A DNA stretch of 64,000 bases from Candidatus Babeliales bacterium (GTDB lineage: Bacteria > Babelota > Babeliae > Babelales > JBFXEV01): NCBI GenBank assembly GCA_050179755.1, contig JBFXEV010000001.1, forward strand, positions 329,994 to 393,993, given 5' to 3'. The position numbers and the translations under genes were made by a program. Of this stretch, positions 9,213-59,078 are shown piece by piece. The notes beneath the pieces were generated by a model that saw only the letters and a list, made by a program, of their open reading frames with translations, did no database searches and was not told where the DNA came from. Numbering within the stretch: the stretch's first letter is position 1; every line of letters starts with the position of its first letter.

Positions 9213-10130
9213 TTAAACTTGATTTGCCAAGAGCACTTTGAGCAATTGAATAAGTTTATTGGTATTTTCATAGCTATTTCTCGCTATGTGTTTGGCGCGT
9301 GCAATGTAGTGTAAACAACTTAATTGCACATCTTTATTAAAAAAAGGATTGTCTAGAAACCCTGCCAGTGCAGTATATTCATCAAATTTATTACACAATA
9401 CATCGGGAGTATAGAGATTAACTAACTGCACTAATGCCGCTGTATAGCTTTTTAGTCCCTGTAGTTCAGCATCAGTAAATGCAACCGAGTCATCCAAGAA
9501 ATGCTGAACGTTCTGGAATGAAGAAGCACACAAATCTTGATTGAACGAAGATGCCATATCTATGCCATAAAAAATATCAGCCGCCTCATCATAAAAATAA
9601 TTGCTTCTACCACGGCCAGCATTACCTACGAAAGTATCTAAAGCAACAAGTGCTGGTAAATTTTTATGACGCGACATATGATATATTATCTCTCTTGTGA
9701 GACCAAGAACTTTTTCTTTTCCATTTTGACGAAGATTTAACCCTTTATATATCTTACCTTGATACAAATCAAAACGAACGCCTGGTACATATGTATGAAG
9801 TGTTGCAGGACTACCAAGATCTTTACCAATATATGTTATAGCCGCTGGAATAAGACTGGCCTGATTCAAGGAAACAGAAATAGAATGCCCTATATCAAGA
9901 GCTACCATCTCACAGACACAGCGTGCTAAGCGAGCAAAATCATCTGCAAATTTAATTTGTTTTATGAGAAACCAAACACCTGAAGTATCTTGAAAAATAG
10001 TAATTTCACAATAGGGATATTCAACATATTTGCAGGATTCTTTTATTGGCTTAATGTCTCTGTAATCAATACCTTGAACCCTACATGCACTTAGAAGCAG
10101 GAAAACATACATTAAAATAATCTGGCTCAT
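9213..10130 (-). CDS. HipA/PI3-PI4-kinase-like protein with signal peptide; catalytic Asp absent (possible pseudokinase)
   Basis: LIKQ, CEMVALDIG, LDTFVGNAGRGRSN (paralogues have N-x-DR), YGIDMA. Confidence 0.6.
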   Translation of the reverse strand: MSQIILMYVFLLLSACRVQGIDYRDIKPIKESCKYVEYPYCEITIFQDTSGVWFLIKQIKFADDFARLARCVCEMVALDIGHSISVSLNQASLIPAAITYIGKDLGSPATLHTYVPGVRFDLYQGKIYKGLNLRQNGKEKVLGLTREIIYHMSRHKNLPALVALDTFVGNAGRGRSNYFYDEAADIFYGIDMASSFNQDLCASSFQNVQHFLDDSVAFTDAELQGLKSYTAALVQLVNLYTPDVLCNKFDEYTALAGFLDNPFFNKDVQLSCLHYIARAKHIARNSYENTNKLIQLLKVLLANQV

Positions 10131-11083
10131 GATAAAAAGCCTTTTCTTGTCAACAAGCTCTTAAGAAGCCTATCAAGCTCAATTGCATGCTCATAATTTG
10201 CCAACATTATTTGGTTGCACCATGCAAAAAATTTAAAGCAATTTTTCATAGTTTCTTGATCAAAGAATGTTGTATCATAAAAGCCAGACAATCTAATATA
10301 CATTTCAAATTTATCCCATATTGCTCTAGGGGGATAAAGAGTAACCAATCTATGTAACGTTTCATAATATAACAATAATCCTTGAAACTCTTGTTCCGAA
10401 AAATCGACTTGTTCATTAAAAAAAAGAGTATACATATTTTCTGTAGAAAGCGCACATAATTTTCTGTTGAAGGCATCTGCCATATCAATACCTATAAAAG
10501 AATCAGTTGCTAGATCGTAAAAATAATTCCATCTACCCCGATCTCCATTCCCAACAAAAGTATCTAAGGCAACTAGAACAGGCAAATCATTATGGCGAGA
10601 CATGTGATAAATAATTTCTCTGGTTAATCCCGTTATCTTATTTTGAGCATTTCTTTGTCTAATATGTAATCCTTTATACTGCGTTCCTTGATATTTATCA
10701 AAACGAACACCTCGTGCATATGTGTGAAGTGTTGCAGGAAGATCAATAAGTTTACCTATAAATGGCACACCGGCAGGAATAAGCGCTGCATAATTGAGTG
10801 GTGCTTCAATAGAATGCCCTATATCAAGAGCTACCATCTCACAAACCAATTGCGCTGGATCAAATACATTACTATCCCTTAAAAGCTTTATTTGCTTTAC
10901 AACATACTTATTGCCAAATGGATCAATCAGAAATGTAATAGAAGAATGCAGACAATCCATATGACCATAAGATTCTATTTCTGTTACCAAATCTTGGTAA
11001 TTAATATTTTCACCGCCTCTTTGCGGAGTCAACATTAATGGTAAATAGAACGCAAGTCGCTTAGTAATATATAATCCAGACAC
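10127..11083 (-). CDS. HipA/PI3-PI4-kinase-like protein (start uncertain)
   Basis: YVVKQ, CEMVALDIG, LDTFVGNGDRGRWN, FIGIDMA. Confidence 0.65.
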   Translation of the reverse strand: MSGLYITKRLAFYLPLMLTPQRGGENINYQDLVTEIESYGHMDCLHSSITFLIDPFGNKYVVKQIKLLRDSNVFDPAQLVCEMVALDIGHSIEAPLNYAALIPAGVPFIGKLIDLPATLHTYARGVRFDKYQGTQYKGLHIRQRNAQNKITGLTREIIYHMSRHNDLPVLVALDTFVGNGDRGRWNYFYDLATDSFIGIDMADAFNRKLCALSTENMYTLFFNEQVDFSEQEFQGLLLYYETLHRLVTLYPPRAIWDKFEMYIRLSGFYDTTFFDQETMKNCFKFFAWCNQIMLANYEHAIELDRLLKSLLTRKGFLS

Positions 11084-11115
11084 AGATCGCGTTTTTCATT
11101 CTTAGTCATTCTTTT

Positions 11116-12045
11116 TTATTTTAGCGAGACTCTCAACTTTTTATGTCCTTTTTTCATTGGCTTCTTCCAAAGACCTGAAAAATGATGAATAGCCATAGTC
11201 TCTTGTTGCACCCACTTATATGGTCCATCATTCTTTTTACCCCATGCATAAAAGTAATTTTGTGGGAAAATTACATTAACGCCATCACAACTGGTTAACA
11301 ATTTTTTTACGGTATCACCAAAGTAAAAAACGCCGTTCCTATGAAATTGGTCTTTTTCATGAACATAGTCTTTCATAGTATCAATAAGCGCCTTCAGAAT
11401 GGGATGGCCCGGACGCGAGCCTATCAATGCATTACAACAGGTTAATTTATCACCTTTTTCATGGCCAGAAATCCATTTCAGTTCATGAATACCGGTATAG
11501 AAATCGCACCAATGATGCAACAAATCAAAAGGCTTAAGACATTCAAAATCTACATCAACATATAATCCACCAAATCGATATAAAATTTCATAACGCCAAA
11601 TATTTGCTTTCTCGCCATAATTAACTGCATTCTTAAAAGATTCCTTATTAATCAAATCAAATGCCTCGAGATCTGCTTCAGTCCAAACTTTAAAATCCCA
11701 ATCGGGGTGCAAATCAATCCATGTTTTTTGCAATTTTTTCAATTCTTCAGGCGGACGGCTACCCAACCAAATTTGATGAATCACTTTTGGAATAGTAACT
11801 GTTTCATTATATAGTATGGGCTTCTTATTTTTGGCTATACGAGCAACATGTTTGGTATAATTTTCCTTTAACATTTGCATATCAGCAGAAGTATATGAAT
11901 TATTATTCAGTAATTCAAAATAATAATCTTCAAATGTAGTAAACATTGCCTTATCAAAATCTTCCAAATAGTATAAATCTAAATTTATACAAGAAGTATT
12001 ACAAAAAACTATTAATAGTATGCTCGCACAATATAACTTTTTCAT
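11116..12045 (-). CDS. GT32-type (DXD, OCH1-like) glycosyltransferase with signal peptide and basic tail
   Basis: IPKVIHQIWLG, RYEILYRFGGLYVDVD; start moved to the ATG after GGAGG. Confidence 0.88.
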   Translation of the reverse strand: MKKLYCASILLIVFCNTSCINLDLYYLEDFDKAMFTTFEDYYFELLNNNSYTSADMQMLKENYTKHVARIAKNKKPILYNETVTIPKVIHQIWLGSRPPEELKKLQKTWIDLHPDWDFKVWTEADLEAFDLINKESFKNAVNYGEKANIWRYEILYRFGGLYVDVDFECLKPFDLLHHWCDFYTGIHELKWISGHEKGDKLTCCNALIGSRPGHPILKALIDTMKDYVHEKDQFHRNGVFYFGDTVKKLLTSCDGVNVIFPQNYFYAWGKKNDGPYKWVQQETMAIHHFSGLWKKPMKKGHKKLRVSLK

Positions 12046-12065: not shown

Positions 12066-12475
12066 CTATTTCTTGTTTATAAATTCATAGAGTATTTCTA
12101 TCAATCTCTCATTTTTTTTATTATTAAACAACTTAACAACTTTATCTCTGCCTTCATGTCCCATAACAATCCACAGCTCAGGATGCTCCACCATGTAACG
12201 CATTTTCTTACTTAATTGTGTTGTATCTTTTTCATTGACCAAAAAACCAGTAATGCCATCAACTACTAATGTCGGAATTCCCCTATGATGCGCGCTGATA
12301 ATGGGCAATGCTGTAGCCATTGCCTCCGTCATAGAAATAGAAAAATAACTCACAACTAATAAGATATTCAACGGTTATCGATGCTAGCTGAATATGTTTT
12401 TACTGAAATAAACAATGAACTCACCATACATAAATACAGTACAAACCAACTTGCAACTTTTTTTATCATGTTCAT
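12066..12475 (-). pseudogene. GT4 (WcaL-like) remnant with frameshift and large internal deletion
   Basis: Leader MNMIKKVASWFVLYLCMVSSLFISVKTYSA out of frame with NILLVVSYF, which is fused directly to ISMTEAMATALPIISAHHRGIP; compare intact 30164..31381. Confidence 0.85.
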
Positions 12476-12707: not shown

Positions 12708-13577
12708 ATGAATATAAAATATATATATTTCATAACCATGCTGTCCTTGCTCCTTGGCAATCATGAAATGAAGTCAAAAATAGCCAGTGAGGTGCTCACA
12801 ACGTTGGCAAGTGTCATTAATGATGTCATTGAAAAAAATTTTACTGATGAAGAACAAGCTAAAATTAATAATATAACTAAATTGCGAAATGAATTAGAAA
12901 AAGATGAAACAGTAACAGGCTTATTTAGCATGTCTCACATGGTTCGTATTATTAGTATGCCTCACGATCCATGGGGCCTATTACTCGTAAAACTTGCACG
13001 TACGTTTCAGCCTAAAACATCGTTAGAGCTGGGTACTTGTCTTGGTATTTCATGTGCTTATTTGGCCGCCGGCCTAAATGAGGGACAACTTATAACAATG
13101 GAAAGTTTTCAACCATTAGTTCCTTTAGCAACAAGCAACTTTGAAGCTCTAAACATTAATAATATTTCTTTACTCTGTGGCGATGTACCCGATCTGCTCA
13201 AACAAGAATTGCCATTGTTGCCTTCTATAGACTTTGTTTTTGATGATCATTTACATGCTGAAAAGTATGTAATGGAATATCTAAATATTATTAAACCTTA
13301 CCTTTCAGATCAAGCTGTGTATTTATTTGATGATATTCATCGCAATGCAAGTATGGAATCGGCGTGGGAAAAGATTAAAAAAGATGAAGCAGTAAAAATC
13401 ACCATCACTCTTGCAAAAGGAATTTGCTATTGGGACTTCAAACACCCAGTGCCACGCGTTGGAATTTGTATTGTTGATAAAGATATAACTGAAAAAATCC
13501 ACTGTGATATTAACTTAGATGGTTGCAAAAGCGTAAAAGTGGAAAATAATCGTTTAATTGAACAAAGAGATACATAA
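12708..13577 (+). CDS. Class I SAM-dependent (O-)methyltransferase with signal peptide
   Basis: LELGTCLGIS motif I, IDFVFDDHLH, YLFDDI; paralogue of 28323..29174. Confidence 0.85.
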   Translation: MNIKYIYFITMLSLLLGNHEMKSKIASEVLTTLASVINDVIEKNFTDEEQAKINNITKLRNELEKDETVTGLFSMSHMVRIISMPHDPWGLLLVKLARTFQPKTSLELGTCLGISCAYLAAGLNEGQLITMESFQPLVPLATSNFEALNINNISLLCGDVPDLLKQELPLLPSIDFVFDDHLHAEKYVMEYLNIIKPYLSDQAVYLFDDIHRNASMESAWEKIKKDEAVKITITLAKGICYWDFKHPVPRVGICIVDKDITEKIHCDINLDGCKSVKVENNRLIEQRDT

Positions 13578-13649: not shown

Positions 13650-13893
13650 TGCAGTCATTGATATTGGAGGTATCGCAGGTTCAACTATACGCGGCACAAT
13701 TTCAAACATTACTGATTACGGTATGTTTGTAACTATCGCAAAAGGTGTTGATGGCCTTGTACACATTTCTGAAGTTTCTTCAAATGGACGTGTTGACAAC
13801 TTACATCACTTGTTCAATGTTGGCCAAGACGTTAGTGTAAAAGTTCTTGGTATCTACAACGATAAGCGTAGAATTTCATTAAGCATGAAATAG
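13650..13893 (+). pseudogene. Internally deleted duplicate of the S1 gene
   Basis: 13650-13675 matches 8698-8723 and 13676-13893 matches 8907-9124 (4 substitutions seen); no ATG upstream of the matching segment, in-frame TGA at 13630. Confidence 0.9.
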
Positions 13894-13910
13894 GCTAAGC
13901 TTATAAAAAT

Positions 13911-14019: not shown

Positions 14020-14946
14020 TCAGCGCCGCCGCCGTTTAAACCGTTTAGGAGGTTTTATCCAAAAAGCTGTATAGTAATGCACAGCCAACGTTTCGGGCTG
14101 CACATATGCCTTGCCGGGTTGAATAGTAAAGCCATAACTTGCAGCCATGGGCCCACTTGGATAAAAAAAATTTGAAGGGAAAATCATATCAAGCGAATCT
14201 GATTCAAGAGGCAAAATATCTTCGATTATCGATGTAAAAAAATCAGGACCAGTTCTATTAGCAACGCCTCTTTTATTAACAAAATGTTTCAACGAATTAA
14301 CAGCATGAGCAAGAATAGGATGCCCTGGACGAGCAGCAATTATGCCATTATTAATGCGCAATCTATTCTTAAATAATAACGGTACTGCATGTATACCAAC
14401 ATAAAAATCACATACTTGATTTAACCAATCGAGCGGTTTAAGACTTTCAAAATCAATGTCTACATACACTCCACCAAAATGATAGAGTATTTCATACCTT
14501 AAAATATCAGCTTTTTCACCCCAATTTACGGCTTTATCAAAATACTTTTTATTTTCAAACACAAAACCCTCAACATCATCATTAGTCCAAAGTTTATACT
14601 CCCAATCTGGATGCATAGTAAGCCAAGACTCCTGCCATGCGCGCGTTTTTTCTGGCAATGGGCGCGGACCTATCCATATTTGATGAATAATTTTAGGAAT
14701 AATATACTCATCAGTATATCGTTCGCGTGCCTTATCCAAAAATTGATAATATTGATCAACAATTTGATTAAGAAGTGCCTTATGTGGTGTTTTTTCAAGG
14801 AATTTATTATATGCTTTCAGATCATCTGGATGACTTATCATTGCTTGACTAAAACTTTCAGGAATATAAATCTCCTGAACTACAGCCACCACATAAAAAC
14901 TTGTAATCAATACAAGCAATATAGATATAAAATATATATTTTTCAT
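14020..14946 (-). CDS. GT32-type glycosyltransferase with signal peptide and tail KPPKRFKRRRR
   Basis: IPKIIHQIWIG, KADILRYEILYHFGGVYVDID, RTGP; start coupled (TAATG) to the upstream stop. Confidence 0.9.
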   Translation of the reverse strand: MKNIYFISILLVLITSFYVVAVVQEIYIPESFSQAMISHPDDLKAYNKFLEKTPHKALLNQIVDQYYQFLDKARERYTDEYIIPKIIHQIWIGPRPLPEKTRAWQESWLTMHPDWEYKLWTNDDVEGFVFENKKYFDKAVNWGEKADILRYEILYHFGGVYVDIDFESLKPLDWLNQVCDFYVGIHAVPLLFKNRLRINNGIIAARPGHPILAHAVNSLKHFVNKRGVANRTGPDFFTSIIEDILPLESDSLDMIFPSNFFYPSGPMAASYGFTIQPGKAYVQPETLAVHYYTAFWIKPPKRFKRRRR

Positions 14947-15962
14947 TATCTTACCTTTTGTTGAATTCTTGCCATCCATGCGCATGCTTTTTGACCAAAC
15001 GCACGCACTGGATCTAAATCTAAGGGAGTTCCAAAAGGAACGTTGCCCGTTGCAATGATATCAAGGCATTCTTTTGCAGAAGAAACACAGGTGCCAAAAC
15101 CATAGGTTTCTTGAAAAGAATTGAGCTTATAGTCACCCGGAATCATAATACAAGGAATTCCAAGTCCGTAGGCAATAATTGCGCCATGCAAACGGGAAGT
15201 AATAACTAACGAGCTTTTACAATAATATTCATTAATATAATCTTCTAATCCAAAATTTTTAGCCTGAATATTATTTATGACTTTAAGCTCTTTAATATGT
15301 TGCGATAACATGCTTATAATCTTCTCTGTTTGTTCTTTACCAAGCGAAACACTATGAGAATCATATAATATTAAACCTTCTGCATTCATGTTCCGCTTAA
15401 ATTTTTGTAAGTATATAACGGTTGGACAAAGGGAAATATCTGCATATGATAATTGATAATACTGTGCTGTTAGAAGATCACGAAGATTAACTAAATCGCA
15501 TTTTTTTGCAACAGCTTGCACAATTTCTTTGCTAACGCCTGCTGCAAATTCGCCATGCTTATATGGTAAACAAATACCCAATCCCCACATAATCATAGGA
15601 AGCGTACAATTATCACGTAACTTAATCCAAAAAGGCTCAAAGCAAGAATTCAATAAACCTGCTCCTCCAATAATAGCTCCTTTATAGTGCGTATTAATAA
15701 AATCAAAATCAATATCTTTATCATGCATACACCAAACATCAGTTGAAATGCCAAGCATTTCTTGTATGCCTAAAATCGGCAAAAAATTCCCTATGTTATC
15801 AGAAGAGGAATAAAATTGAATAATAGGAGACTGAGGTTTTCTGAGCTCTTTTTGTACTTTTGACAGATCATGAAATTTACAGCGTCGATCAATCGCACCA
15901 TATACACCATGCGCCACTAACCCAAAACATAGTAATACCCCATATTTTAAATAATTAACCAT
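14946..15962 (-). CDS. Polysaccharide pyruvyl transferase family protein
   Basis: NIGN, IIGGAGLL, WGLG, NLRD, VITSRLHGAIIAYGLGIP. Confidence 0.82.
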   Translation of the reverse strand: MVNYLKYGVLLCFGLVAHGVYGAIDRRCKFHDLSKVQKELRKPQSPIIQFYSSSDNIGNFLPILGIQEMLGISTDVWCMHDKDIDFDFINTHYKGAIIGGAGLLNSCFEPFWIKLRDNCTLPMIMWGLGICLPYKHGEFAAGVSKEIVQAVAKKCDLVNLRDLLTAQYYQLSYADISLCPTVIYLQKFKRNMNAEGLILYDSHSVSLGKEQTEKIISMLSQHIKELKVINNIQAKNFGLEDYINEYYCKSSLVITSRLHGAIIAYGLGIPCIMIPGDYKLNSFQETYGFGTCVSSAKECLDIIATGNVPFGTPLDLDPVRAFGQKACAWMARIQQKVR

Positions 15963-22961: not shown

Positions 22962-23096
22962 TTATATAATATTGATATTTATTGACTTTACTTCACGCTT
23001 TTTAGCATAGTATTAATGCTAACTTATTGTTAAAAATAAATCTGAAAGGAAATTTTAAACTTATTCAGATCAATGTACAAAATAATCAAGGAGGTA

Positions 23097-48496: not shown

Positions 48497-49111
48497 ATGA
48501 AGCGCTTTGTTATGGTATACCTAGTATTAAATATAATTACTCTACTTTCTCATGATAGTGAAAAGCACACTACATTACCTAAAGTGCGTTCCTTTGATTT
48601 TGAGTTTATTGCAATGCATGAAAAAGATTTCAAGCAAATTTACGAATGGCTGCATCGGCCTTTCATAGAGCCATGGTTCATACCAAAATCCCTGTCTTGG
48701 ACCGATTTTTTAAGCATATACTCGGCAAAGCTTACTACTGAATTTGAATGGAATTATTTGATATATAGTCATGAAGAGCCGATTGGCTATATTCGCTATT
48801 ATGATGCACATCGAGAACCGGACGGCATAGGAAACCTTGAACCAGAAGGATCGTATGGTATTGAATTATTTATAGGCGAATCAGAATATCTGCAAAAAGG
48901 ATATGGAACTACCATATTGTCTTTATTTATGGAGAAAATTATCTTGGATCAAAAAAAACTAGGGCGTAACGTAGAACGTTTTATTATTGATCCAAATATA
49001 CATAATATTCCTGCCTATAGAACATATTCCAAAGTTGGTTTCTCAAAAGTACGTGAATTTGAAGATCCCTATTATGGGCCATTATTGATTATGGAATTTT
49101 ACCCAAATTAA
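48497..49111 (+). CDS. GNAT N-acetyl/acyltransferase (AAC(6')/IucB-like subgroup)
   Basis: WLHRPFIEPW, PIGYIRYY, GIELFIGESEYLQKGYG, IIDPNIHNIPAYRTYSKVGF. Confidence 0.85.
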   Translation: MKRFVMVYLVLNIITLLSHDSEKHTTLPKVRSFDFEFIAMHEKDFKQIYEWLHRPFIEPWFIPKSLSWTDFLSIYSAKLTTEFEWNYLIYSHEEPIGYIRYYDAHREPDGIGNLEPEGSYGIELFIGESEYLQKGYGTTILSLFMEKIILDQKKLGRNVERFIIDPNIHNIPAYRTYSKVGFSKVREFEDPYYGPLLIMEFYPN

Positions 49112-51628: not shown

Positions 51629-52569
51629 ACAAAATACTTATCTATTTTAATCAAAAGATTCTCAATAAGTTCGAGCAATCTTTGGGCTTGCTCAAAACTT
51701 ATATGTATAATTTTTATACAATGACCTAAATAGCCCCGCCAACGCTCGCAAGCCCTTTCAGGGAAAAATGACACATCATAAATTCCTGATGCCACAGCAT
51801 ACTTATCAATCATGCTTTCTAAAGATGCGGGAGAAAAATGAATGAGCATATTTTTAAGGGTAGCTGCATACGCCCTAAGTCCATAACACTCTTGCATGGA
51901 GAGATTTATATAATCACCATCTAATAACTGATTTATAACTCTACACGAAGGTTGGCATAAATCTCTGCGAAATGCTGCACCCATATCTATTGCCATAAAG
52001 GAATCTGCTTGCTCATCGTAAAAAAGATTGCGGTTATTACGATCATTATTACCCGTCAAAGTATCAACTGCAACGAGCGCTGCTAAATCTTTATGCAATG
52101 CCATAGCGCTAATAATCTCACGCGTTAAGCCTTGATTATCTTTCTGGCAAAGCGATACGCCATGATATTTTGCGCCTTTATATTTATCAAACCGAATGCC
52201 GGGCGCATGCGTATGAATGGTTGCTGGCATAGCAATTTCTTTGCCAGCGCAGTAAACACCCGCGGGCACCAAATAGGCTGTATCAAATGGCACGCCAACT
52301 GTATGCGCTATATCAAGAGCCACGAGCTCGGTAATAGTTGTTGCAAGTAAGCTCGTGCATGTTGAGTATTTATACTGCTTAACTACATAAAGGCTTCCGT
52401 CATTATCTTCAAGAAAAGAAACAAAGCTATTAACGCATCTTTTTTTATCAACGGTAAGTATAGTTTGAGTAAATGATGCTATGTCAAAGTCATAAGCGTG
52501 CATGCTTAAAGTAACAACAAACACTATGTATAATGTGCTAAAAGCATTCATGAGGTACCTATTTATCAA
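51625..52569 (-). CDS. HipA/PI3-PI4-kinase-like protein with signal peptide
   Basis: YVVKQY, ELVALDIA, VDTLTGNNDRNNRN, AIDMG. Confidence 0.68.
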   Translation of the reverse strand: MINRYLMNAFSTLYIVFVVTLSMHAYDFDIASFTQTILTVDKKRCVNSFVSFLEDNDGSLYVVKQYKYSTCTSLLATTITELVALDIAHTVGVPFDTAYLVPAGVYCAGKEIAMPATIHTHAPGIRFDKYKGAKYHGVSLCQKDNQGLTREIISAMALHKDLAALVAVDTLTGNNDRNNRNLFYDEQADSFMAIDMGAAFRRDLCQPSCRVINQLLDGDYINLSMQECYGLRAYAATLKNMLIHFSPASLESMIDKYAVASGIYDVSFFPERACERWRGYLGHCIKIIHISFEQAQRLLELIENLLIKIDKYFV

Positions 52570-53464
52570 GTAATTGGGAGATTACATCAAGCAAGAGCAA
52601 TGCGCTCTCACCACTATTTTGTATATGTTGTTTGCAACGATGTAAAAAGCGTTTCCATTTTTTTTGCACTTTATTGCTAAAAAATCTAGTATCAAATAAC
52701 TGTGATTCTTGCGCATAGTCATCTAGTAGCTGATTTATCTTATGTGCTGGGAATAACGCTACTAATTTTTCTAGCGTTGCGTAATAATGCGCAAGAGCTT
52801 CTTTCTCATCTACAGTAAAATATATTTGATCATTTTGTAGCAATGCTTCTAGCGTATGCACGGAAGCTTTGCATAAATTACACGAAAATGCTCCTCCTAG
52901 ATCAATACCAATAAATGAGTTTGTCTCTACATTATAAAAATAATTATAGCTACCGCGATCTATATTACCCACAAACGTATCAAGTGCAACAAGCGCAGGC
53001 AAATTCTTATGGCACGCCATACTTTTGATAATTTCTCGCGTTAGGCCAACATTGGGGCTTTGATACAGCACTATATTTTTATAGACATTACCTTGATATT
53101 TATCATAGCGAACACCCTCTACAAACGTATGCACTGTTGCTGGCAATGAATTGAACTCTTTTGCCATAAACGGCACGCCCGATGGTATAAGGCACGCTTC
53201 ATTAAGTAAAACCCCTACTGCATGCCCTAAATCAAGCGCCACTAATTCACAAATGGTAGTTGCTGCCATTAGGCTAAACTCGCCATGTTTATATTGCTTT
53301 ACAATGTACTGATTCCCGTCTCTATCATAAATGCGAGTTGCATAACAATTATGGCTTTGAATGCGATAAAAAACTTCTGTATCAACTATGATATGCTTAT
53401 AATCTAGTGCATGTGTTGAATATATGAGTAATACGATGAACAACGTACTATATAATTTCTTCAT
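52559..53464 (-). CDS. HipA/PI3-PI4-kinase-like protein with signal peptide
   Basis: YIVKQY, CELVALDLG, LDTFVGNIDRGSYN, GIDLG. Confidence 0.68.
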   Translation of the reverse strand: MKKLYSTLFIVLLIYSTHALDYKHIIVDTEVFYRIQSHNCYATRIYDRDGNQYIVKQYKHGEFSLMAATTICELVALDLGHAVGVLLNEACLIPSGVPFMAKEFNSLPATVHTFVEGVRYDKYQGNVYKNIVLYQSPNVGLTREIIKSMACHKNLPALVALDTFVGNIDRGSYNYFYNVETNSFIGIDLGGAFSCNLCKASVHTLEALLQNDQIYFTVDEKEALAHYYATLEKLVALFPAHKINQLLDDYAQESQLFDTRFFSNKVQKKWKRFLHRCKQHIQNSGESALLLLDVISQLLDK

Positions 53465-53715: not shown

Positions 53716-54747
53716 ATGATCTTTCGCCTAGCCCACAAGATTTTTCCACAATTTTCCCTCTTTTTTTTCTTTTTTTGTATATGCGTAGATGTATGTTACA
53801 ACGCCCAGTGTACTTCTATTGTATCATTTCCCTTAGTTCAATTTGACAATGCCATGATCTGCCACCCCATTGATAGTAATGAGTATCAAAAATCATGCAA
53901 CCGCACACCTGAAGATAAAAAACTTTTTGATTTTGCACATCAAAATTACCAAACATATTTCTTAGAAGCGCAAGGATATACTCAAGCAGTGCGCATACCA
54001 AAAATTATCCATCAGATTTGGGTGGGGCCACATCAACCGCCACCTCAATTTAAAAAATGGCAACAAACGTGGATTGCCCTGCACCCTGATTGGGAATATA
54101 AATTGTGGACCGATACAGAAGTTGAAAATCTCACCCTCATAAACAAGCAATATTATGATGAAGAGCAAAATTATGGTGCAAAGTCTGATATCTTACGCCT
54201 TGAATTACTACATGAATTTGGAGGATTATATGTAGATATTGATTGTGAATGCTTATGCTCGTTTGATATGCTTCATCATCTTTGTGATTTTTATATTGGT
54301 TTTTTTCAAGTTAATTTTTTACGTTCTTCAGCACGCGTAAATAATGCGCTCATGGCAGCATGTCCACACCATCCACTTATAACAATCCTACTACACAAAC
54401 TTGCCTTGAATCAGCAAAAACAAAGCTCCGCAGAAATTATTGAACGAACAGGCCCCAGCTTTATCACGCAAGCACTCAAAGAACATGTTTATTCTGCTGA
54501 AGGAATCAATCTATTATTACCAGCAAATTTCTTTTATCCATTTACCGGAATAAGTCAAAAATTGAAATTGATTATGCATCCTGAGACTATGGCAATACAT
54601 TATTATGCAGGCACTTGGCACAACAAGAAAAAAAGAACGCATACCCCCCTCAATAAGCAATCTACCTCCTATAAAGCATTGCAAAGAGAACGCGAAATAA
54701 AAAAAACTGTGTTGTTAGCAAACTATAATACTGTCATTTCTCAATAA
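53716..54747 (+). CDS. GT32-type glycosyltransferase
   Basis: IPKIIHQIWVG, KSDILRLELLHEFGGLYVDID, RTGP; start moved to the ATG after AAAGGA. Confidence 0.88.
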   Translation: MIFRLAHKIFPQFSLFFFFFCICVDVCYNAQCTSIVSFPLVQFDNAMICHPIDSNEYQKSCNRTPEDKKLFDFAHQNYQTYFLEAQGYTQAVRIPKIIHQIWVGPHQPPPQFKKWQQTWIALHPDWEYKLWTDTEVENLTLINKQYYDEEQNYGAKSDILRLELLHEFGGLYVDIDCECLCSFDMLHHLCDFYIGFFQVNFLRSSARVNNALMAACPHHPLITILLHKLALNQQKQSSAEIIERTGPSFITQALKEHVYSAEGINLLLPANFFYPFTGISQKLKLIMHPETMAIHYYAGTWHNKKKRTHTPLNKQSTSYKALQREREIKKTVLLANYNTVISQ

Positions 54748-54823: not shown

Positions 54824-56470
54824 ATGCTACGTTGGTTAATCAATTTTCGCGCGCTTTTTCTCCTTCTTTCTCTTGGAATTAAATCATTGGCACATGCCCA
54901 TGATACTAATGATGAGCGACCTTTAGTCATATCTATATGTGCCTATAATTGTTCATCATGGGTACTACAAAACCTAGATTCTATCTTTAGTCAAAATTAT
55001 AAAAACTTTCGAGTGATTTATATAGATGATGGCTCTTTAGATACCACCGTAGAACAAGTTGAAAAATATAGAGACGAACACGCACTTAGTGATAAAATTA
55101 CACTGATTGCCAATCCAGTACGAGTAGGTAAACTCAAAAACATATATCACGCATTTCATACATGCAAAGATACAGAAATCATTGTACAGGTTGATGGCGA
55201 CGATTGGTTACCTACTACACATATTTTTGAACGAATTAATCAAGCATATCAAGAACAAGACGTTTGGCTAACTTATAGCGATTTCTATGTGCATCCAGAA
55301 GGCACCAAAGAATGGTGCGTTCCCCAACCAGTTCCTGATCATATTAAACAAAAAAGAGCATATCGTAATTGGAAGTGGGTGTTCACTCATTTACGCACAT
55401 TCTATGCTTGGCTTTATAAAAGCGTAAAATTAGAAGATTTTATAACCGAACTTTCTCCTGGTTTTGAAGGAAAGTTTTTCCCCATTTGCAATGACATGGC
55501 AGCCTTCTTTCCCATGCTAGAAATGTGCGGGCCTCACTTTAGCTTTATACCGGAAAAGCTTTACGTCTATAATCGTGACAACCCAATCTTAGGGGCTAAG
55601 CTCTATGGACATCTTTATAAACCAATCGGTGAAGATGTACGCAAACGAGAAAAATATCCGTTAGTTGAAAAACCCAAATTTAACCATCTTGCATCACTTG
55701 CTCAAGCGCAAGCGCATCTGATTATTCTTTCAAATGGCATTTTAAAAGATCTCTCACGCATAATCAGTTCTCTCAACCGCAATGCTTCTGACATTAAGCG
55801 CGTTACGGTAGTATTAGATAAAAAAACGGCTGAACTGCAAACATTTGCAAAAAAACATGCCTCTACTCACTTTGTCTATCTCACTCAACAATCATGCAAT
55901 GAGGCGCTTTCAAGTATAGTTCAAAAAAGCTCAGAATCACACGTTATTATTGCAAAAGATGCCATTTTTATAGAGCAACCTATTGATATACGTGCCTGCA
56001 TTAATGAACTTGAAACCACGCAAGCACACGCATTTTATTTAGGATTTATGCATACCAATATGCCTTTTTATAACCCTGAAACAAAGCGGGAAATAGTGCC
56101 TCATCAGCATATCTGGAACAACGTATATGCATGGAAATTTAGAATAGGCTATGATCGATTATGCAACAACCTTGATATGACACTATTTACCAAGAACACC
56201 TTTATCAAGAGATTGCAATCTTTGCCTGAGGCGCAAACAGTGTGCTCATTTATAGATGCCTGGCAACAGTGCAATGCTACAAACCAACATGAAGTTGGCT
56301 TATTTTATGATAATGCAAAACTAGGCGGGAATCTCAGCTTACATACTCATGCAAATTACACAGCTTGCCTTCCAATCGTACCTACCCACATAAGCATGAA
56401 AGAGTATGTGATGAGCTTACTGCAAATTAATGCGCAACTATTCAATAAAGAGTATAATGCACGTTATTAA
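54824..56470 (+). CDS. Two-domain GT2 glycosyltransferase
   Basis: CAYN, YIDDGS, VDGDDWL, RTFYAWL, PMLEMCG; start after GGAG. Confidence 0.88.
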   Translation: MLRWLINFRALFLLLSLGIKSLAHAHDTNDERPLVISICAYNCSSWVLQNLDSIFSQNYKNFRVIYIDDGSLDTTVEQVEKYRDEHALSDKITLIANPVRVGKLKNIYHAFHTCKDTEIIVQVDGDDWLPTTHIFERINQAYQEQDVWLTYSDFYVHPEGTKEWCVPQPVPDHIKQKRAYRNWKWVFTHLRTFYAWLYKSVKLEDFITELSPGFEGKFFPICNDMAAFFPMLEMCGPHFSFIPEKLYVYNRDNPILGAKLYGHLYKPIGEDVRKREKYPLVEKPKFNHLASLAQAQAHLIILSNGILKDLSRIISSLNRNASDIKRVTVVLDKKTAELQTFAKKHASTHFVYLTQQSCNEALSSIVQKSSESHVIIAKDAIFIEQPIDIRACINELETTQAHAFYLGFMHTNMPFYNPETKREIVPHQHIWNNVYAWKFRIGYDRLCNNLDMTLFTKNTFIKRLQSLPEAQTVCSFIDAWQQCNATNQHEVGLFYDNAKLGGNLSLHTHANYTACLPIVPTHISMKEYVMSLLQINAQLFNKEYNARY

Positions 56471-56489: not shown

Positions 56490-57422
56490 ATGAATATTTT
56501 TTTTCAAAAACTACTAACGTGTCTTTTCTTACTCAGTATGCCAAGCATACAAGCACAGCTATTTCCAGATTATTTTGTGGATTTTGATACAGCGATGCTG
56601 TGCAACCCAGACGATGCTCTCTCTTATCAAACAGCGATTGAAGCAGATGCCAAAAACAACAACTTTTTTAGCTATGCACGTGCGCAATATACAAAATACA
56701 TAATCGAACAACCAGACTATTGCCAAGAACCACGCATTCCAAAAAAAATTCACCAAATTTGGGTAGGTCCTAACACGCCACCAGTCCATTTTAAAACATG
56801 GCAGGAGTCTCTCTTAAAACTACACCCAGATTGGGAATATAAACTCTGGACCGATGAAGACGTTAAGCATTTAACAATGATTAATCAACGTCATTACGAT
56901 GCAGAAACCAATTATGGCGCAAAAGCTGATATATTACGCCTTGAACTTCTTAATCAATTTGGTGGCGTTTATGTGGACATTGATTTTAAATGCATTAAGC
57001 CATTTGATCCATTGCATCATCTTTGTGACTTTTATATAGGTTTTTTCCAAGCAATTTTTATGCGTGGAAGAGCGCGCATTAATAATGGCATCTTTGCAGC
57101 AACGCAAGGTCACCCACTCATTAAAATTCTTATTGAAGAAATTGGCAAAAATAGAGATCAATACCCTGATTTGACAAGTTGGAGCGGCATATTAGCACGC
57201 AATGGCCCTGATTTTGTAACAAGGATTATTCACACCTATCTACCGCAACTTGAAGGCATTAATATTATATTTCCTTCAAACTATTTTTACCCATGGTCTG
57301 GCGCACCAAAAAACCTGCAATTGCACGTGCAACCAGAAACAATTGCCATACATTATTTTGCAAGCTCATGGGATCCTAAGGTGCATGACTTACCGCATCT
57401 GCAACAACTAAAGCAACGTTAA
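56490..57422 (+). CDS. GT32-type glycosyltransferase
   Basis: IPKKIHQIWVG, KADILRLELLNQFGGVYVDID. Confidence 0.9.
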   Translation: MNIFFQKLLTCLFLLSMPSIQAQLFPDYFVDFDTAMLCNPDDALSYQTAIEADAKNNNFFSYARAQYTKYIIEQPDYCQEPRIPKKIHQIWVGPNTPPVHFKTWQESLLKLHPDWEYKLWTDEDVKHLTMINQRHYDAETNYGAKADILRLELLNQFGGVYVDIDFKCIKPFDPLHHLCDFYIGFFQAIFMRGRARINNGIFAATQGHPLIKILIEEIGKNRDQYPDLTSWSGILARNGPDFVTRIIHTYLPQLEGINIIFPSNYFYPWSGAPKNLQLHVQPETIAIHYFASSWDPKVHDLPHLQQLKQR

Positions 57423-57440
57423 TAACTTTGCTTGGAGTCA

Positions 57441-59078
57441 ATGAAGAACATATTTGTCACCCTATACGCTCTAGGTTTTCTTGCCTGTTGGGCGGCACCA
57501 TGCCTTCCAAGCACTACGGAACTTCCTTTCATAATTTCAGTCTGCGCTTATAATGCAAGCGCTTGGGTTGAGAAAAATTTAGAATCTCTCTGCACGCAAG
57601 AGTACAGCAACTTCCATATAGTCTACATTGATGATGGTTCTGAAGATGACACGGCACAAAAAGTTGAAAACTATAGAACACAACATAATGTACAAGATAA
57701 AATTACGCTCATAAGAAACCAAACGCGCCAACGCAAAATGAAAAATATTTATACGTTATTTCATAATTGCCCAGATGAATCTATTATCATACAAGTTGAT
57801 GCCGATGATTGGCTAGCGCATAACAAAGTTTTTTGCATTATTAATAAAACATACCAGGAGCAAGATGTATGGCTCACGTATGGCCAATTTCAAGTGCATC
57901 CAAGTAAGCAAATGGGCTATTGCAGACAAGTACCAAGTGAAATACAAAAAAATCGTGACTATCGCAAGTATAGATTTGTATACACGCATATTCGCACATT
58001 TTACGCTTGGCTCGTTAAATTAATTAAACTACAAGACCTCATAGCAGAAAATATGCCTGCTCCCTATACTGGCCGTTTCTTCCCCGTGGCAAATGATAAC
58101 GCTATTTATTTTCCTATGCTTGAAATGTGTGGCAATCGATATGCCTTTATTCCCGATATTTTATATATCCATAATCATGAGAACCCCCAATATGGTCGCA
58201 TTCTTGAGCCCGATCTTTATCATACTGCTCGTGCTGATATAAGATCCCGCCGCAAATATGAAGTACTTAAAAACAAAACTCTTAATCGCTTGGAAGCTTT
58301 TAAAGACGCCAGAGCAACCGCCATTCTTCTTTCAAACGATAATCCCACTGGTCTGCAAACACTCATAGAATCTATCATTGCCCACACTTCAGGAATAAAA
58401 GATATTGTGGGGATCTACCACGCTTCAAATGACACTATTAACACTCACTACCATAAGGTGATCGCACAGCATCCCTCTATCAAGTGTATGCCCGTTGCCA
58501 CAGATTCCGCACTTGCTGCCTTAAAATCGTGCATAAACAAAAGCACATCTGGTCATATACTCCTTGCACAAGATATCGTGTATATAAAAAAACCCATTTC
58601 ATTCAGTGCCTGCATATACGAGCTTGAACGCACGGGAGCTTATGGGTTTTATTTAAATTATGCGCAGAACAAAATGCCTTTTTATTTTCCACAAAGCAAA
58701 AAGGAACATATTGCGTCTCAAATACTTAATAACGAACTATCTGCTTGGAAATTTAATTGCGGTACGTTTGCGCTCTATAATAATATTGATATGACATTAT
58801 TACGAAAACATGATCTTCTTACAAGACTTGATACTCTTGAACCAAAAGCAACATTTTCACTCGATGCATTTCTTGGTGCGTGGCATACCAATAAAGCAAT
58901 TGATGGCCACATGATAGGCCTTTATTACCAAGATGCCCACCTTGATGGTGGGCGTACAAGAATAGTAACACCTGCTATAGAAAAACCACTGCTCAGTTTT
59001 AACTTGGAAAATTACTATAAACAACAATCATGGTTGCCAAATGATTTATCCAAGGAATTGATGCACTTTCTCAAGTAA
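57441..59078 (+). CDS. Two-domain GT2 glycosyltransferase
   Basis: CAYN, YIDDGS, VDADDWL, RTFYAWL, LERTGAYGFY. Confidence 0.88.
   Translation: MKNIFVTLYALGFLACWAAPCLPSTTELPFIISVCAYNASAWVEKNLESLCTQEYSNFHIVYIDDGSEDDTAQKVENYRTQHNVQDKITLIRNQTRQRKMKNIYTLFHNCPDESIIIQVDADDWLAHNKVFCIINKTYQEQDVWLTYGQFQVHPSKQMGYCRQVPSEIQKNRDYRKYRFVYTHIRTFYAWLVKLIKLQDLIAENMPAPYTGRFFPVANDNAIYFPMLEMCGNRYAFIPDILYIHNHENPQYGRILEPDLYHTARADIRSRRKYEVLKNKTLNRLEAFKDARATAILLSNDNPTGLQTLIESIIAHTSGIKDIVGIYHASNDTINTHYHKVIAQHPSIKCMPVATDSALAALKSCINKSTSGHILLAQDIVYIKKPISFSACIYELERTGAYGFYLNYAQNKMPFYFPQSKKEHIASQILNNELSAWKFNCGTFALYNNIDMTLLRKHDLLTRLDTLEPKATFSLDAFLGAWHTNKAIDGHMIGLYYQDAHLDGGRTRIVTPAIEKPLLSFNLENYYKQQSWLPNDLSKELMHFLK

Follow-up and report, generated by a model that had tools for sequence, protein, structure and literature searches.

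The window analysed here, a stretch of 64,000 nucleotides from a Candidatus Babeliales bacterium, contains a glycosylation locus (positions 9213-59078) in which a basic-hydrophobic leader stands at the N-terminus of all 39 intact genes. The explanation that we favor, and to which we give about an even chance, is that these genes encode a Sec-exported glycan synthesis and tailoring set, working outside the bacterial cytoplasm on host-derived cofactors. If true, a Babeliales lineage would make or modify glycans beyond its own cytoplasm and probably draw on the host's activated sugars. No published experiment on any protein of the locus was found in the literature, and we infer export, cleavage, site of action, host cofactor use, acceptor and product from sequence.

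Gene content of the locus

Forty open reading frames (ORFs) of at least 100 amino acids tile the locus without large gaps. One of them (12066-12371) is a 101-residue C-terminal GT4 remnant, so the earlier note's count of 39 intact genes is correct. By Pfam, PDB and fold matches, the glycosyltransferases (GTs) are nine GT2, six GT32 plus one GT2-GT32 fusion, three GT4 and one GT47. These are accompanied by two UDP-glucose 6-dehydrogenases (Ugd), a eukaryote-type UDP-rhamnose epimerase/reductase, a pyruvyltransferase, two methyltransferases, a GNAT acetyltransferase, seven kinase-like proteins and six proteins from unnamed families. Coordinates and strands are as follows.

9213..10130 (-) KA kinase-like paralogue 1; leader with lipobox-like LLSAC; no Pfam match; 38% identity to KA paralogue 5 (52559-53464)
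10127..11083 (-) KA kinase-like paralogue 2; weakest leader; GTG start
11116..12045 (-) GT32 (Gly_transf_sug, DXD), leader; Pfam E 4.7e-15; internal ATG chosen, Shine-Dalgarno-like motif
12066..12371 (-) GT4 C-terminal remnant (pseudogene piece); Glycos_transf_1 positions 105-169 of 172 only
12708..13577 (+) SAM methyltransferase (Methyltransf_24), leader; E 2e-10; domain from residue 106
13769..13909 (+) duplicated 3′ end of flanking S1-domain gene; 94% to 9000-9140
14020..14946 (-) GT32, long hydrophobic leader (about 20 residues); E 1e-14
14946..15962 (-) polysaccharide pyruvyltransferase, leader; PS_pyruv_trans E 2.2e-18; domain from residue 81
16226..17122 (+) short GT2, leader; E 8.8e-15; domain from residue 52
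17136..18137 (+) P family 1, leader; GT-A-like fold probable from Atlas structural matches to GT2/GT8/GT77 clusters (TM 0.54-0.69)
18134..19147 (+) P family 2, leader
19193..20302 (-) GT32, leader, basic C-terminal tail; E 8.3e-15
20446..21342 (-) GT47 exostosin-type/RXYLT1-like transferase, leader; Exostosin_GT47 E 2.6e-19
21531..22961 (+) long GT2 (GT2 plus P-like C-terminal domain), leader; Pfam
23073..24038 (+) UDP-4-keto-6-deoxy-glucose 3,5-epimerase/4-reductase type (UDP-L-rhamnose synthesis), leader of about 35 residues; PDB 4qqr E 3.3e-101, 7jid E 1e-64
24100..24260 (+) P-family gene remnant in the 24038-24631 gap; frame +1
24631..26022 (+) Ugd copy 1, leader; E 5.2e-60; domain from residue 24
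26145..27149 (+) short GT2, leader, very basic linker; E 1.4e-16; domain from residue 82
27139..28326 (+) GT4, leader; E 2.1e-38
28323..29174 (+) SAM methyltransferase (Methyltransf_24), leader; E 4.3e-10
29259..30143 (-) GT32, leader; E 6.8e-14; 79% DNA identity to 11151-11450
30164..31357 (-) GT4, leader; E 1.2e-38
31506..32690 (-) GT4, leader; E 5.5e-40
32854..34527 (+) long GT2, leader, polybasic tail; Pfam
34622..36019 (+) Ugd copy 2, leader; E 1.2e-57
36016..37671 (+) long GT2, leader, polybasic tail; Pfam
37740..38879 (+) KB protein-kinase-like fold protein 1, leader; 49% identity to KB paralogue
38872..39945 (+) KB protein-kinase-like fold protein 2, leader; predicted model pLDDT 88; PRPK/Bud32, PI4K, Rio2 at E down to 5.6e-5
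40040..41563 (+) long GT2, leader, polybasic tail; Pfam
41560..44034 (+) long GT2-GT32 fusion, leader, polybasic tail; GT2 spans 40-163 and Gly_transf_sug 581-653
44037..45518 (+) Q family 1 (unnamed; QueC-like lead only), leader
45740..47077 (+) Q family 2, leader
47121..48464 (+) Q family 3, leader
48497..49111 (+) GNAT acetyltransferase, leader; Acetyltransf_8 E 7.5e-16
49160..50488 (+) Q family 4, leader
50726..51628 (-) KA kinase-like paralogue 3, leader; HipA_2 E 0.0096
51625..52551 (-) KA kinase-like paralogue 4, leader; HipA_2 E 2.3e-5, PI3_PI4_kinase E 0.0021
52559..53464 (-) KA kinase-like paralogue 5, leader; low-confidence model; kinase folds top the list, none at E <= 0.001
53716..54747 (+) GT32, leader; E 1.3e-12
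54824..56470 (+) long GT2, leader; E 6.1e-22
56490..57422 (+) GT32, leader; E 6.4e-14; SetA glucosyltransferase 1.2e-9, Och1-type 8.4e-4
57441..59078 (+) long GT2, leader; E 6.1e-18

The kinases named in the earlier note fall into two groups: the predicted model supports a kinase fold for the KB pair, whereas the assignment of the KA quintet is weakly supported. The PP-loop enzymes it listed were not confirmed. The four Q-family members have no sequence match in Pfam, NCBIfam or PDB, and the sole pointer to a PP-loop is an Atlas lead (0.90) to a QueC-like cluster.

Searches of the 40 ORFs against Pfam returned no Bac_transf, Glycos_transf_4, Polysacc_synt (Wzx), Wzy/ligase, ABC2 or NTP_transferase, in agreement with the earlier statement that the locus holds no priming transferase, Wzx/Wzy, ABC exporter, ligase or nucleotidyltransferase. 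At most one or two hydrophobic 19-residue windows occur in any of these ORFs. About 380 bp past the right end of the locus lies MurJ, a gene of the MOP flippase superfamily (Pfam MurJ E 2.9e-87), and priming or export genes could lie elsewhere in the 1.53-Mb genome. The window has no UDP-glucose 4,6-dehydratase, the step upstream of the epimerase/reductase. In ordinary bacteria UDP-sugars, NAD(P), SAM, PEP, acetyl-CoA and ATP are cytosolic cosubstrates. Most LPS genes are described as absent from Babeliales in PMC4776705.

Detection and polarity of the leaders

Leaders were called where nine uncharged residues in a row, beginning no later than residue 18, averaged 1.9 or more on the Kyte-Doolittle scale. 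The rule is positive for 40/40 locus ORFs versus 3/11 flank ORFs, and alone it is unspecific, as 12 of 26 control enzymes (Ugd, GT and epimerase types from 11 ordinary bacterial loci) are also positive, mostly through the Rossmann beta-1 strand. In the GT4 remnant the match is false, being the GT4 beta-1 strand. The discriminating feature is a hydrophobic run in an extension before the first Pfam match, present in 29/29 Pfam-bearing locus genes versus 2/26 controls (by our reading of the domain and leader positions). The export-type leader claimed for nearly every enzyme of this 39-gene glycosylation locus is thus found in every intact gene; the three leaders named at the time were located as MKFRSITLLSLLVFAQSHA at 34622, MKKLYSTLFIVLLIYSTHA at 52559 and MFKKIILLILCTVQLIHA at 49160.

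Could the leaders be artefacts of wrong start codons, or chance Lys- and Ile/Leu/Phe-rich N-termini of AT-rich DNA? The window is AT-rich (GC 0.33-0.43), the simple rule yields false positives, and in 11 genes an internal ATG was preferred over the longest ORF. Against this, for 28 of the 39 leaders the first start codon in the ORF is the one used, and a Shine-Dalgarno-like motif lies upstream of 10/11 chosen internal starts versus 0/11 longest-ORF starts. Hundreds of independently predicted homologues show leaders of differing sequence and the same character. All eight housekeeping genes in the flanks (ComM-like, ACPS, S1, NUDIX, MurJ, ABC ATPase, TnpB, Lon), of the same composition, lack one, as do MutL, UvrC and ClpB in a related locus described below. 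An artefactual origin is therefore largely refuted and very improbable. Because nearby cytoplasmic housekeeping genes carry no leaders, both objections anticipated in the earlier note, start-site artefacts and the same leaders on core enzymes, fail within the window and the one related locus; as far as these two reach, leaders are restricted to this gene class.

Net charge of the n-region is +1 or higher in 37 of the 39 intact genes. Against the 12 residues that follow the run, the n-region is the more positive in 31 of 40 ORFs and the less positive in 6, with 3 ties. Under the positive-inside rule, by which the more positive flank of a membrane run stays inside, this polarity would place the catalytic domain outside. 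These sequence features support the view that the leaders are genuine, conserved additions whose charge polarity is that of Sec signals (N-in, C-out). Among the six ORFs that are more basic after the leader is the 26145 gene, whose leader is followed by a very basic linker that would be difficult to translocate.

An unlikely alternative is that the leaders are uncleaved anchors with catalytic domains on the cytoplasmic face or in mixed topology, forming an ordinary membrane-tethered complex in the cytoplasm that draws on nucleotide sugars imported by the bacterium itself, while priming and export genes lie at other places in the genome. Over 19 residues, 22/40 leaders are transmembrane-like in hydrophobicity, and many could therefore be uncleaved anchors; the six ORFs with more basic post-leader residues, the adjoining MOP-family flippase and the cytoplasmic nature of all the cosubstrates also fit. 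The prevailing charge polarity runs the other way, the hydrophobic runs of the other 18/40 leaders are too weak or too short for a membrane span in the 19-residue test, and same-family homologues of ordinary bacteria need no anchor. The epimerase/reductase leader, moreover, abuts the first Rossmann-fold strand (gap of 2 to 3 residues), and a small residue stands where position -1 probably falls. Across this family, the residue two positions before the conserved K-T-F-L-V-F-G-G strand is Ala in 33% and a small residue of any kind in 50%, which argues that there is no stem and so favors cleavage over the Golgi-like uncleaved anchors suggested earlier, at least for this enzyme.

Ugd activity depends on a catalytic cysteine in reduced form. 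In the Ugd clade that bears leaders, the median is 7 cysteines versus 4 and even numbers are not in excess, unlike what an oxidising periplasm would favor, which is weak evidence because the compared groups are different lineages.

Conservation of leaders in Dependentiae

Dependentiae (TM6) are a lineage of obligate intracellular parasites of protists. Among 120 Ugd homologues, 72 have an extension with a hydrophobic run, 3 an extension without a run and 45 no extension. Leaders also occur in 89/120 long GT2 homologues, 105/120 epimerase/reductase homologues and 119/150 KB homologues (by the simple rule, itself unspecific), and leader character is kept while leader sequence is not. On a Ugd tree built with the extension left out, the leader trait needs 4 changes versus 36.7 in shuffles, with 0/500 shuffles as low. 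All extension-bearing homologues with a phylum-level name are TM6, Dependentiae, Babeliales or Babeliaceae, whereas named homologues without an extension are Marinimicrobia or Fidelibacterota. A distant Dependentiae genome (GC 0.28; Ugd 43% identical) has ten consecutive leader-bearing genes: GT2, methyltransferase, GT47/RXYLT1-like, FkbM methyltransferase, GT32, GT2, P-like, RXYLT1-like, UXS-like and Ugd. By these sequence comparisons the leader trait belongs to the Dependentiae lineage and is found across it beyond this one locus, rather than being a local peculiarity. A very large Sec-type secretome is already on record for this phylum: Chromulinavorax destructans is described as having signal peptides on 44% of its coding sequences and cells that replicate in the host cytoplasm with a mitochondrion wrapped around them (PMC6561590).

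Proposed exported glycan synthesis and possible separate effectors

In the explanation that we favor, each enzyme would cross the inner membrane by its Sec-type leader, and signal peptidase I would probably cleave most leaders; a few may be long enough to remain as anchors, and one or two resemble lipoprotein signals. The enzymes would then reside in the periplasm, on the cell surface or, if released by type II secretion or in vesicles, in the host cytoplasm around the cell, with activated sugars and cofactors supplied by the host. Type II secretion genes are reported in all seven TM6 genomes (PMC4776705). Ugd would convert UDP-glucose to UDP-glucuronate and the epimerase/reductase would complete UDP-L-rhamnose. 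About 20 Pfam-supported GT domains and up to 9 further GT-A-like domains would add the sugars, and further decoration of the product would come from the atypical kinases together with the acetyl-, methyl- and pyruvyltransferases. Since no lipid-linked priming, flipping or polymerisation is encoded, the acceptor is most likely a protein or other exported molecule and not undecaprenyl phosphate. For the exported assembly line of the earlier note, the leaders, the enzymes with cytosolic cosubstrates and the lack of priming and export genes stand, whereas its export, location and host cofactors we infer only.

Other intracellular bacteria deploy glucosylating effectors and toxins, and the locus proteins might instead be separate exported effectors, each GT or kinase modifying host proteins or lipids in the host cytoplasm, with families duplicated under host pressure and no assembly line. 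The GT32 protein at 56490..57422 matches the Legionella SetA glucosyltransferase domain (E 1.2e-9) and, more weakly, the catalytic domains of lymphostatin, YeGT, a Photorhabdus toxin, TpeL and TcdA, as well as Pfam TcdA_TcdB. Families are strongly expanded and still duplicating and decaying (nine GT2, seven GT32 domains, five KA, four Q, remnants and a 4.77-kb block duplication), and the polybasic tails, conserved in orthologues, resemble host-targeting signals. The account in PMC4378268 interprets signal-peptide-bearing ankyrin and ubiquitin-system proteins of Dependentiae as host effectors, including Babela ankyrin proteins (79/126 with signal peptides) that it takes to be secreted into the amoeba. 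We nevertheless regard separate effectors as improbable, because the presence of sugar-making and tailoring enzymes (two Ugd, epimerase/reductase, pyruvyltransferase, two O-methyltransferase-type enzymes, GNAT) is understandable only where a decorated glycan of several sugars is being built. The GT4, GT47 and pyruvyltransferase families are polysaccharide enzymes, and the same enzyme mixture recurs in the ten-gene run of the distant Dependentiae genome.

Gene content of the locus

The glycosylation locus (window positions 9213-59078) lies in an AT-rich window, its GC content being mostly 0.33-0.39, against 0.37-0.43 on either side of it. ORFs of 100 aa or longer number 40 and are spread over both strands; they comprise 39 intact genes and the remnant of a GT4 gene. 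Where a gene is named by a single number, this is the lower coordinate of its ORF in the window. Pfam assigns 29 of the intact genes and the fragment to families, and the other 10 genes have neither a Pfam nor an NCBIfam match.

Table. Pfam assignments in the locus
GT2: nine proteins (two short; seven long, of 476-824 aa, including a fusion to GT32)
GT32 (Gly_transf_sug, DXD): six stand-alone proteins
GT4: three proteins, and a 101-aa C-terminal remnant at 12066-12371
GT47/exostosin-type with RXYLT1-like C-terminus: one protein
Polysaccharide pyruvyltransferase: one protein
Methyltransf_24 enzymes: two
GNAT: one
UDP-glucose 6-dehydrogenase (Ugd; 24631 and 34622): two copies
Short-chain epimerase/reductase (23073-24038): one
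Weak HipA_2/PI3_PI4-kinase matches: three proteins

Both Ugd copies are UDP-glucose 6-dehydrogenases, with three UDPG_MGDP_dh domains in Pfam (E 1e-57 to 1e-27), a GxGxxG motif and the catalytic-Cys motif GGSC[LF]PK, which is invariant in the Ugd alignment (A1). The epimerase/reductase is similar over its full length (residues 37-317, E 3.3e-101) to the 3,5-epimerase/4-reductase of PDB entry 4qqr, and it also matches the UDP-L-rhamnose synthase 7jid at E 1e-64. These matches make gene 23073 one of eukaryote/giant-virus type, predicted to finish UDP-L-rhamnose; 4qqr is a plant entry and 7jid the Mimivirus enzyme. The UDP-glucose 4,6-dehydratase that would perform the preceding step is absent from the window. 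Five of the 120 best homologues of the epimerase/reductase are longer (448-533 aa), four of them with GxxGWIG some 170-230 residues in.

The unmatched genes and the three weak kinase matches together form four paralogous families: KA with five members, KB with two, P with two and Q with four. For KB, the structure model (pLDDT 88) has 23 PDB fold matches at E <= 0.001, the best being PRPK/Bud32, PI4KIIIbeta, Rio2 and COQ8A; its predicted fold is atypical protein-kinase-like. The KA proteins, which include the three weak kinase matches, are 38-41% identical, and the AlphaFold model built from the five paralogues is poor (pLDDT 66). Kinase folds top the KA fold-search list, with no match at E <= 0.001, and the HipA_2 and PI3_PI4_kinase Pfam matches are weak. 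Family P (17136-19147) probably consists of GT-A-like transferases, with GT2, GT8 and GT77 clusters among its Atlas structure rows at TM 0.54-0.69. In each of the seven long GT2 proteins, the C-terminal half is homologous to the P pair (hhalign 94.5%, E 7.4e-8), so that these long proteins are probably two-domain transferases. The nearest Atlas feature clusters of P belong to Chlamydiota and Nucleocytoviricota, a hint of a gene pool common to amoeba-associated organisms.

The Q proteins (within 44037-50488) are 45-58% identical. They had been labelled PP-loop enzymes in the earlier note, a label that finds no backing in Pfam even at E 10, in NCBIfam or in sequence searches of the PDB. The sole lead for Q is an Atlas value of 0.90 to a cluster carrying DUF6395/QueC-like; among the structural neighbours there is one fusion with a pyruvyltransferase. 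The motif FSHGLDS is invariant in Q and no more than resembles the SGGxDS-type PP-loop motif; matches to ATLF (E 0.015) and SecA_DEAD (E 0.14) were discarded as noise. Beyond the leader, at residues ~62-80, all four members share a further conserved hydrophobic stretch (DYTIITMPLIMNT.G.IW.S), and in two of the four its hydropathy is transmembrane-like.

Leaders ahead of the catalytic domains

An N-terminal leader, a basic-hydrophobic extension ahead of the catalytic domain, had been proposed for nearly all enzymes of the locus, and the proposal holds throughout: each of the 39 intact genes starts with one to three basic residues and then an uncharged hydrophobic run. A simple leader rule, which asks for nine consecutive uncharged residues whose mean hydropathy is 1.9 or more and which begin no later than residue 18, picks out all 40 locus ORFs versus three of 11 flank ORFs. 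Of the three flank products flagged, one is outer-membrane-like and the other two measure 1009 and 195 aa; none has a Pfam match, and all eight flank genes with a housekeeping identity (ComM-like, ACPS, S1, NUDIX, MurJ, ABC ATPase, TnpB and Lon) are leaderless.

The leader rule alone is unspecific. As controls we used 26 Ugd, GT2, GT4, epimerase, pyruvyltransferase, nucleotidyltransferase and related enzymes of 11 ordinary bacterial loci, with GC of up to 0.50, taken from 80 fetched loci; 12 of these enzymes were flagged, nine of them through the hydrophobic Rossmann beta-1 strand. We tightened the criterion to a hydrophobic run ahead of the catalytic domain. A run within the N-terminal extension, ahead of the first Pfam match, occurs in 29 of 29 Pfam-bearing locus genes versus two of the 26 controls, and both of these two lack a basic n-region. 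The feature setting the locus apart from the controls is thus the position of the run ahead of the catalytic domain. An internal ATG was taken as start for 11 genes in place of the longest ORF. An SD-like motif lies 4-15 nt upstream of 10 of these 11 internal starts versus none of the 11 longest-ORF starts. That the leaders are an artefact can be very nearly dismissed.

Sec/signal peptidase I signals have a positive n-region and then, ahead of the mature domain, an h-region of roughly 7-15 hydrophobic residues, and the leaders have both: the net charge ahead of the run is at least +1 in 37 of 39 intact genes, and the run is present in 39 of 39, lying ahead of the first Pfam match wherever there is one (29/29). 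Relative to the 12 residues after the run, the n-region is more positive in 31 of 40 ORFs, equal in three and less positive in six. Under the positive-inside rule, this polarity would place the catalytic domain outside the inner membrane. A 19-residue transmembrane-like test is passed by 22 of the 40 leaders and failed by 18, so that the set probably includes cleavable signals alongside possible anchors. Lipoprotein-signal-like leaders, such as LLSAC at 9213, number one or two. A hydrophobic-window scan, for which MurJ with eight windows served as positive control, found no polytopic protein among the 40 locus ORFs.

The epimerase/reductase is informative on the type of leader. In 110 homologues, the leader runs directly into the conserved K-T-F-L-V-F-G-G strand; two residues before this strand Ala is found in 33% and small residues in 50% in all, and the residue after that position is charged in 72%, mostly Lys. 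Cleavage-site candidates (small residues at -3/-1) come from a crude scan, and the lack of a stem between leader and fold would fit a signal-peptidase site better than a tether. For GT32, GT47 and some GT2 proteins, 30-100 residues separate the leader from the first Pfam match, and a stem-bearing anchor is possible for these. In a rival reading, the leaders are anchors and the catalytic domains remain in the cytoplasm. In roughly half of the genes the leader is long enough to be in keeping with such an arrangement, but the charge polarity of the leaders and the stemless epimerase/reductase both argue against it, and we consider it unlikely.

Seven leaders end in His-Ala immediately ahead of the likely cleavage point (LHA at 16226, IHA at 20446, SHA at 34622, IHA at 49160, MHA at 51625, THA at 52559 and AHA at 54800). 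A recurrent His at -2 is unusual.

Conservation of the leaders in Dependentiae

Leaders are retained among homologues of several locus families. For Ugd, 72 of the best 120 homologues of 34622 are extended by 12 residues or more and carry a hydrophobic run in front of beta-1, three have an extension without a run by the leader rule and 45 begin at the Rossmann strand. The extensions are mutually unalignable and of the same character throughout. On a core-only Ugd tree (FastTree), the extension trait takes 4 changes versus 36.7 in shuffles, none of 500 being as low. Among 120 homologues of the long GT2 36016, the run lies ahead of beta-1 in 89, the extension is without a run in 12 and missing in four, the motif anchor having failed in the other 15. 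A leader is present in 105 of 120 epimerase/reductase homologues, the remainder including four longer forms (448-525 aa), and 119 of 150 KB cluster representatives pass the simple leader rule. All extension-bearing matches named to phylum level belong to TM6, Dependentiae, Babeliales or Babeliaceae, and the named matches without extension to Marinimicrobia or Fidelibacterota. Ugd cysteine counts were rejected as evidence, being confounded by phylogeny.

The Ugd alignment was also used for a scan of genome contigs, whose general patterns matched at least 600 stretches; 80 loci were fetched. The sole named Dependentiae genome among the 80 (L001; GC 0.28, Ugd 43% identical) has ten leader-bearing genes in a row: GT2, Methyltransf_24, GT47/RXYLT1-like, FkbM methyltransferase, GT32, GT2, P-like, a second RXYLT1-like, a UXS-like epimerase and Ugd. 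The run is followed by MutL, UvrC and ClpB, all leaderless, and points to an arrangement common to distant members of the phylum. Its UDP-glucuronate decarboxylase-like (UXS-like) epimerase (L001:8416-9960) has a leader and a 195-residue N-terminal extension, which to our mind recalls the stem of the Golgi UDP-xylose synthase. In another of the loci (L056:8840-19600, 'uncultured bacterium', GC 0.51) the Ugd extension is ~80 residues long, and a leader-bearing epimerase, GT47 and thioredoxin adjoin it. The leader trait may thus extend beyond AT-rich Babeliales, or the locus may come from GC-rich Dependentiae.

Pathway functions looked for in the locus

The earlier note had reported the usual carrier-lipid and export genes as missing, and Pfam searches of the 40 ORFs agree. 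They turned up neither a priming phosphoglycosyltransferase (no match to Bac_transf or Glycos_transf_4) nor Wzx or Wzy, and no ligase, chain-length regulator, ABC-2 permease or nucleotidyltransferase. Bac_transf, Polysacc_synt and NTP_transferase are present in the control loci L045 and L058. One caveat to 'no flippase' is MurJ, a member of the MOP superfamily, just past the right end of the locus; given its match to the lipid II flippase model (E 2.9e-87), we read it as a peptidoglycan gene. Classical Wzx/Wzy-, ABC-transporter- or synthase-dependent loci share GT2, GT4, Ugd, pyruvyl-, methyl- and acetyltransferases with this locus, but their enzymes are without leaders in the control loci, whereas all 39 have them here. 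As a search of the locus for the genes that define the classical Wzx/Wzy- or ABC-dependent type came back empty, the locus is not of that type.

Possible function of the leader-bearing enzymes

Large secretomes have been described in this phylum. Chromulinavorax destructans has signal peptides on 44% of CDS and replicates in the host cytoplasm, wrapped by a mitochondrion (PMC6561590); 79 of 126 ankyrin proteins of Babela massiliensis have signal peptides and were read as secreted into the amoeba (PMC4378268); and type II secretion genes occur in 7/7 compared TM6 genomes, Babeliales being without most LPS genes (PMC4776705). Within this frame of secretome, type II secretion and LPS, export by Sec is the simplest reading of the leaders. 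The locus is like the published secretomes in phylum and in having the same N-terminal signal type on a very large share of proteins, but PMC6561590 and PMC4378268 deal with ankyrins, proteases, nucleases and ubiquitin-system proteins, and do not describe cofactor-dependent sugar-nucleotide enzymes and glycosyltransferases as a class bearing leaders. The word-start 'glycosyl' occurs 0 times in PMC6561590 and once in PMC4378268, as DNA glycosylase. The literature search returned no paper combining Dependentiae, glycosyltransferase and signal peptide, the five matches listed, of six, for Dependentiae with glycosyltransferase being unrelated by title and abstract. The locus is therefore an instance of the known Dependentiae secretome, of a functional class for which we found no description in the main text searched, including that of PMC6561590, PMC4378268, PMC4776705 and PMC12172432.

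The reading that we favour, and to which we give an even chance, is that Sec-exported enzymes build a decorated glycan outside the cytoplasm. The enzymes would leave the cytoplasm by Sec and act in the periplasm, at the cell surface or in the host cytoplasm next to it. There they would have access to UDP-sugars, NAD(P), SAM, PEP, acetyl-CoA and ATP of the host; the glycan would be assembled on an exported acceptor, with no lipid carrier.

Exported proteins could also act singly on host targets. SetA and large clostridial toxin-type glycosyltransferases share the GT-A fold with DXD motif with the GT32 proteins of the locus. These known enzymes use host UDP-sugars and work as single enzymes on host proteins, delivered by type IV secretion or self-translocation, and are not known to use a Sec leader. 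A GT32 member of the locus matches Legionella SetA over 83 residues (E 1.2e-9) and TcdA over 28 residues (E 1.6e-3), both matches being partial and weak, and Pfam TcdA_TcdB matches in the locus cover just 21-44 residues. Such SetA-like and toxin-like matches would suit single host effectors, as would conserved polybasic C-terminal tails, but the sugar-nucleotide and tailoring enzymes in the locus would not, and we regard independent action on the host as improbable.

Polybasic tails (net charge of at least +5 over the last 30 residues) are found in 10 of 40 locus ORFs versus 0 of 11 flank ORFs, at the C-termini of the following.
11116, 14020, 19193, 30164, 32854, 34622, 36016, 39881, 41560, 44037
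They are kept in orthologues (e.g. ...KKRTLPLS, KKRRLHVPGVD), and 24 of 120 long-GT2 homologues have them. The tails resemble nuclear-localisation or acidic-lipid-binding signals.

Comparison with known systems

By analogy, assembly by Sec-exported enzymes would work most like the glycogen system of Chlamydia, and also like giant-virus clusters. The Chlamydia trachomatis glycogen enzymes synthesize a polysaccharide outside the bacterium on host UDP-glucose (Gehre et al. 2016, PMC4829429). They pass by type 3 secretion into the inclusion lumen, a vacuole fed by a host transporter, and a handful of enzymes make a simple homopolymer (PMC4829429), whereas the locus encodes 39 enzymes, all with Sec-type leaders and with a wide range of sugar and tailoring activities, for which no compartment is known. 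The autonomous clusters of giant viruses of amoebae (Megavirinae) likewise combine sugar-nucleotide-modifying enzymes with glycosyltransferases, and build a surface glycan inside the protist host, outside any ER/Golgi (PMC10117803). Giant viruses and the locus share the same type of UDP-L-rhamnose epimerase/reductase (7jid, E 1e-64), but the viral enzymes work in the host cytoplasm with no export signal, whereas the organism of the locus must pass its enzymes across its own membrane. Sec-type leaders, size and enzymatic breadth set the locus apart from both systems.

Golgi type II glycosyltransferases are similar in having an N-terminal hydrophobic segment ahead of a Leloir-type catalytic domain, which is lumenal in the Golgi. 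GT47/exostosin, RXYLT1-like and GT32 are typical Golgi families, and the eukaryotic epimerase/reductase is cytosolic. In contrast to the Golgi set, Ugd, GT4 and the methyltransferases of the locus are bacterial-type and several leaders are stemless. We know of no membrane-bounded compartment with nucleotide-sugar transporters in Dependentiae/Babeliales bacteria.

In the textbook view, a bacterial surface glycan is put together on a lipid carrier inside the cytoplasm, and flipping or pumping then brings it to the outside. Phylum-wide export signals on sugar-nucleotide enzymes and Leloir transferases, with no adjoining carrier-lipid machinery, would break this rule. Taken further, Dependentiae may have a fourth bacterial glycan pathway, a carrier-lipid-free 'outside-in' extracytoplasmic line in which all enzymes are Sec-exported, fed by the host and used to coat the bacterium's own exported proteins; we put this forward tentatively, with doubt outweighing confidence. 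If true, it would be a cellular counterpart of giant-virus fibril glycosylation, and would show that the energy cost of making a surface glycan can be shifted from a bacterium onto its host. Such a pathway would give a testable picture of energy parasites exploiting host metabolite pools beyond ATP, would point to molecules that coat or disguise Dependentiae inside protists, and would offer, in nature and by the hundred, enzymes of cytosolic type that have been adapted to export. Were the enzymes instead to act on host proteins, the locus would be a rich source of glycosyltransferases and kinases that modify the host and are new.

Locus edges and neighbouring genes

The 3′ end of the S1-domain gene (9000-9140) is repeated 4,769 bp further in, at 13769-13909, with 94% identity over 141 nt, and the repeated copy (remnant ~13660-13909) still translates as an S1 C-terminus. 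Between the two copies lies a five-gene block of KA, KA, GT32, the GT4 remnant and a methyltransferase, of which the last three have 71-79% DNA identity to other parts of the locus: the GT32 and the methyltransferase match within 28323-31381, the GT4 remnant matches there or in the neighbouring GT4 gene (31598-31706). Such a block has the look of DNA recently inserted or duplicated at the edge of the locus. At ~24100-24260 there are the first ~50 codons of a P-family gene, followed by stops; together with the GT4 remnant at 12066-12371, this P remnant suggests that the locus is gaining and losing copies.

To the left of the locus, window positions 1031-5413 encode two leader-bearing proteins without a family match. 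One, of 441 aa, is outer-membrane-like with an LSAC lipobox-like site and the other is 1009 aa long; both are candidate surface proteins, and so possible acceptors. GC at 10-34 kb (0.33-0.35) is slightly below that of the flanks (0.37-0.43), making an island-like origin possible. On the left, a tRNA-Met (CAT) gene (8287-8363) ends 850 bp short of the locus; on the right, a TnpB (OrfB_IS605/Cas12f-like TNB) gene (61871-62986) lies 2.8 kb past it.
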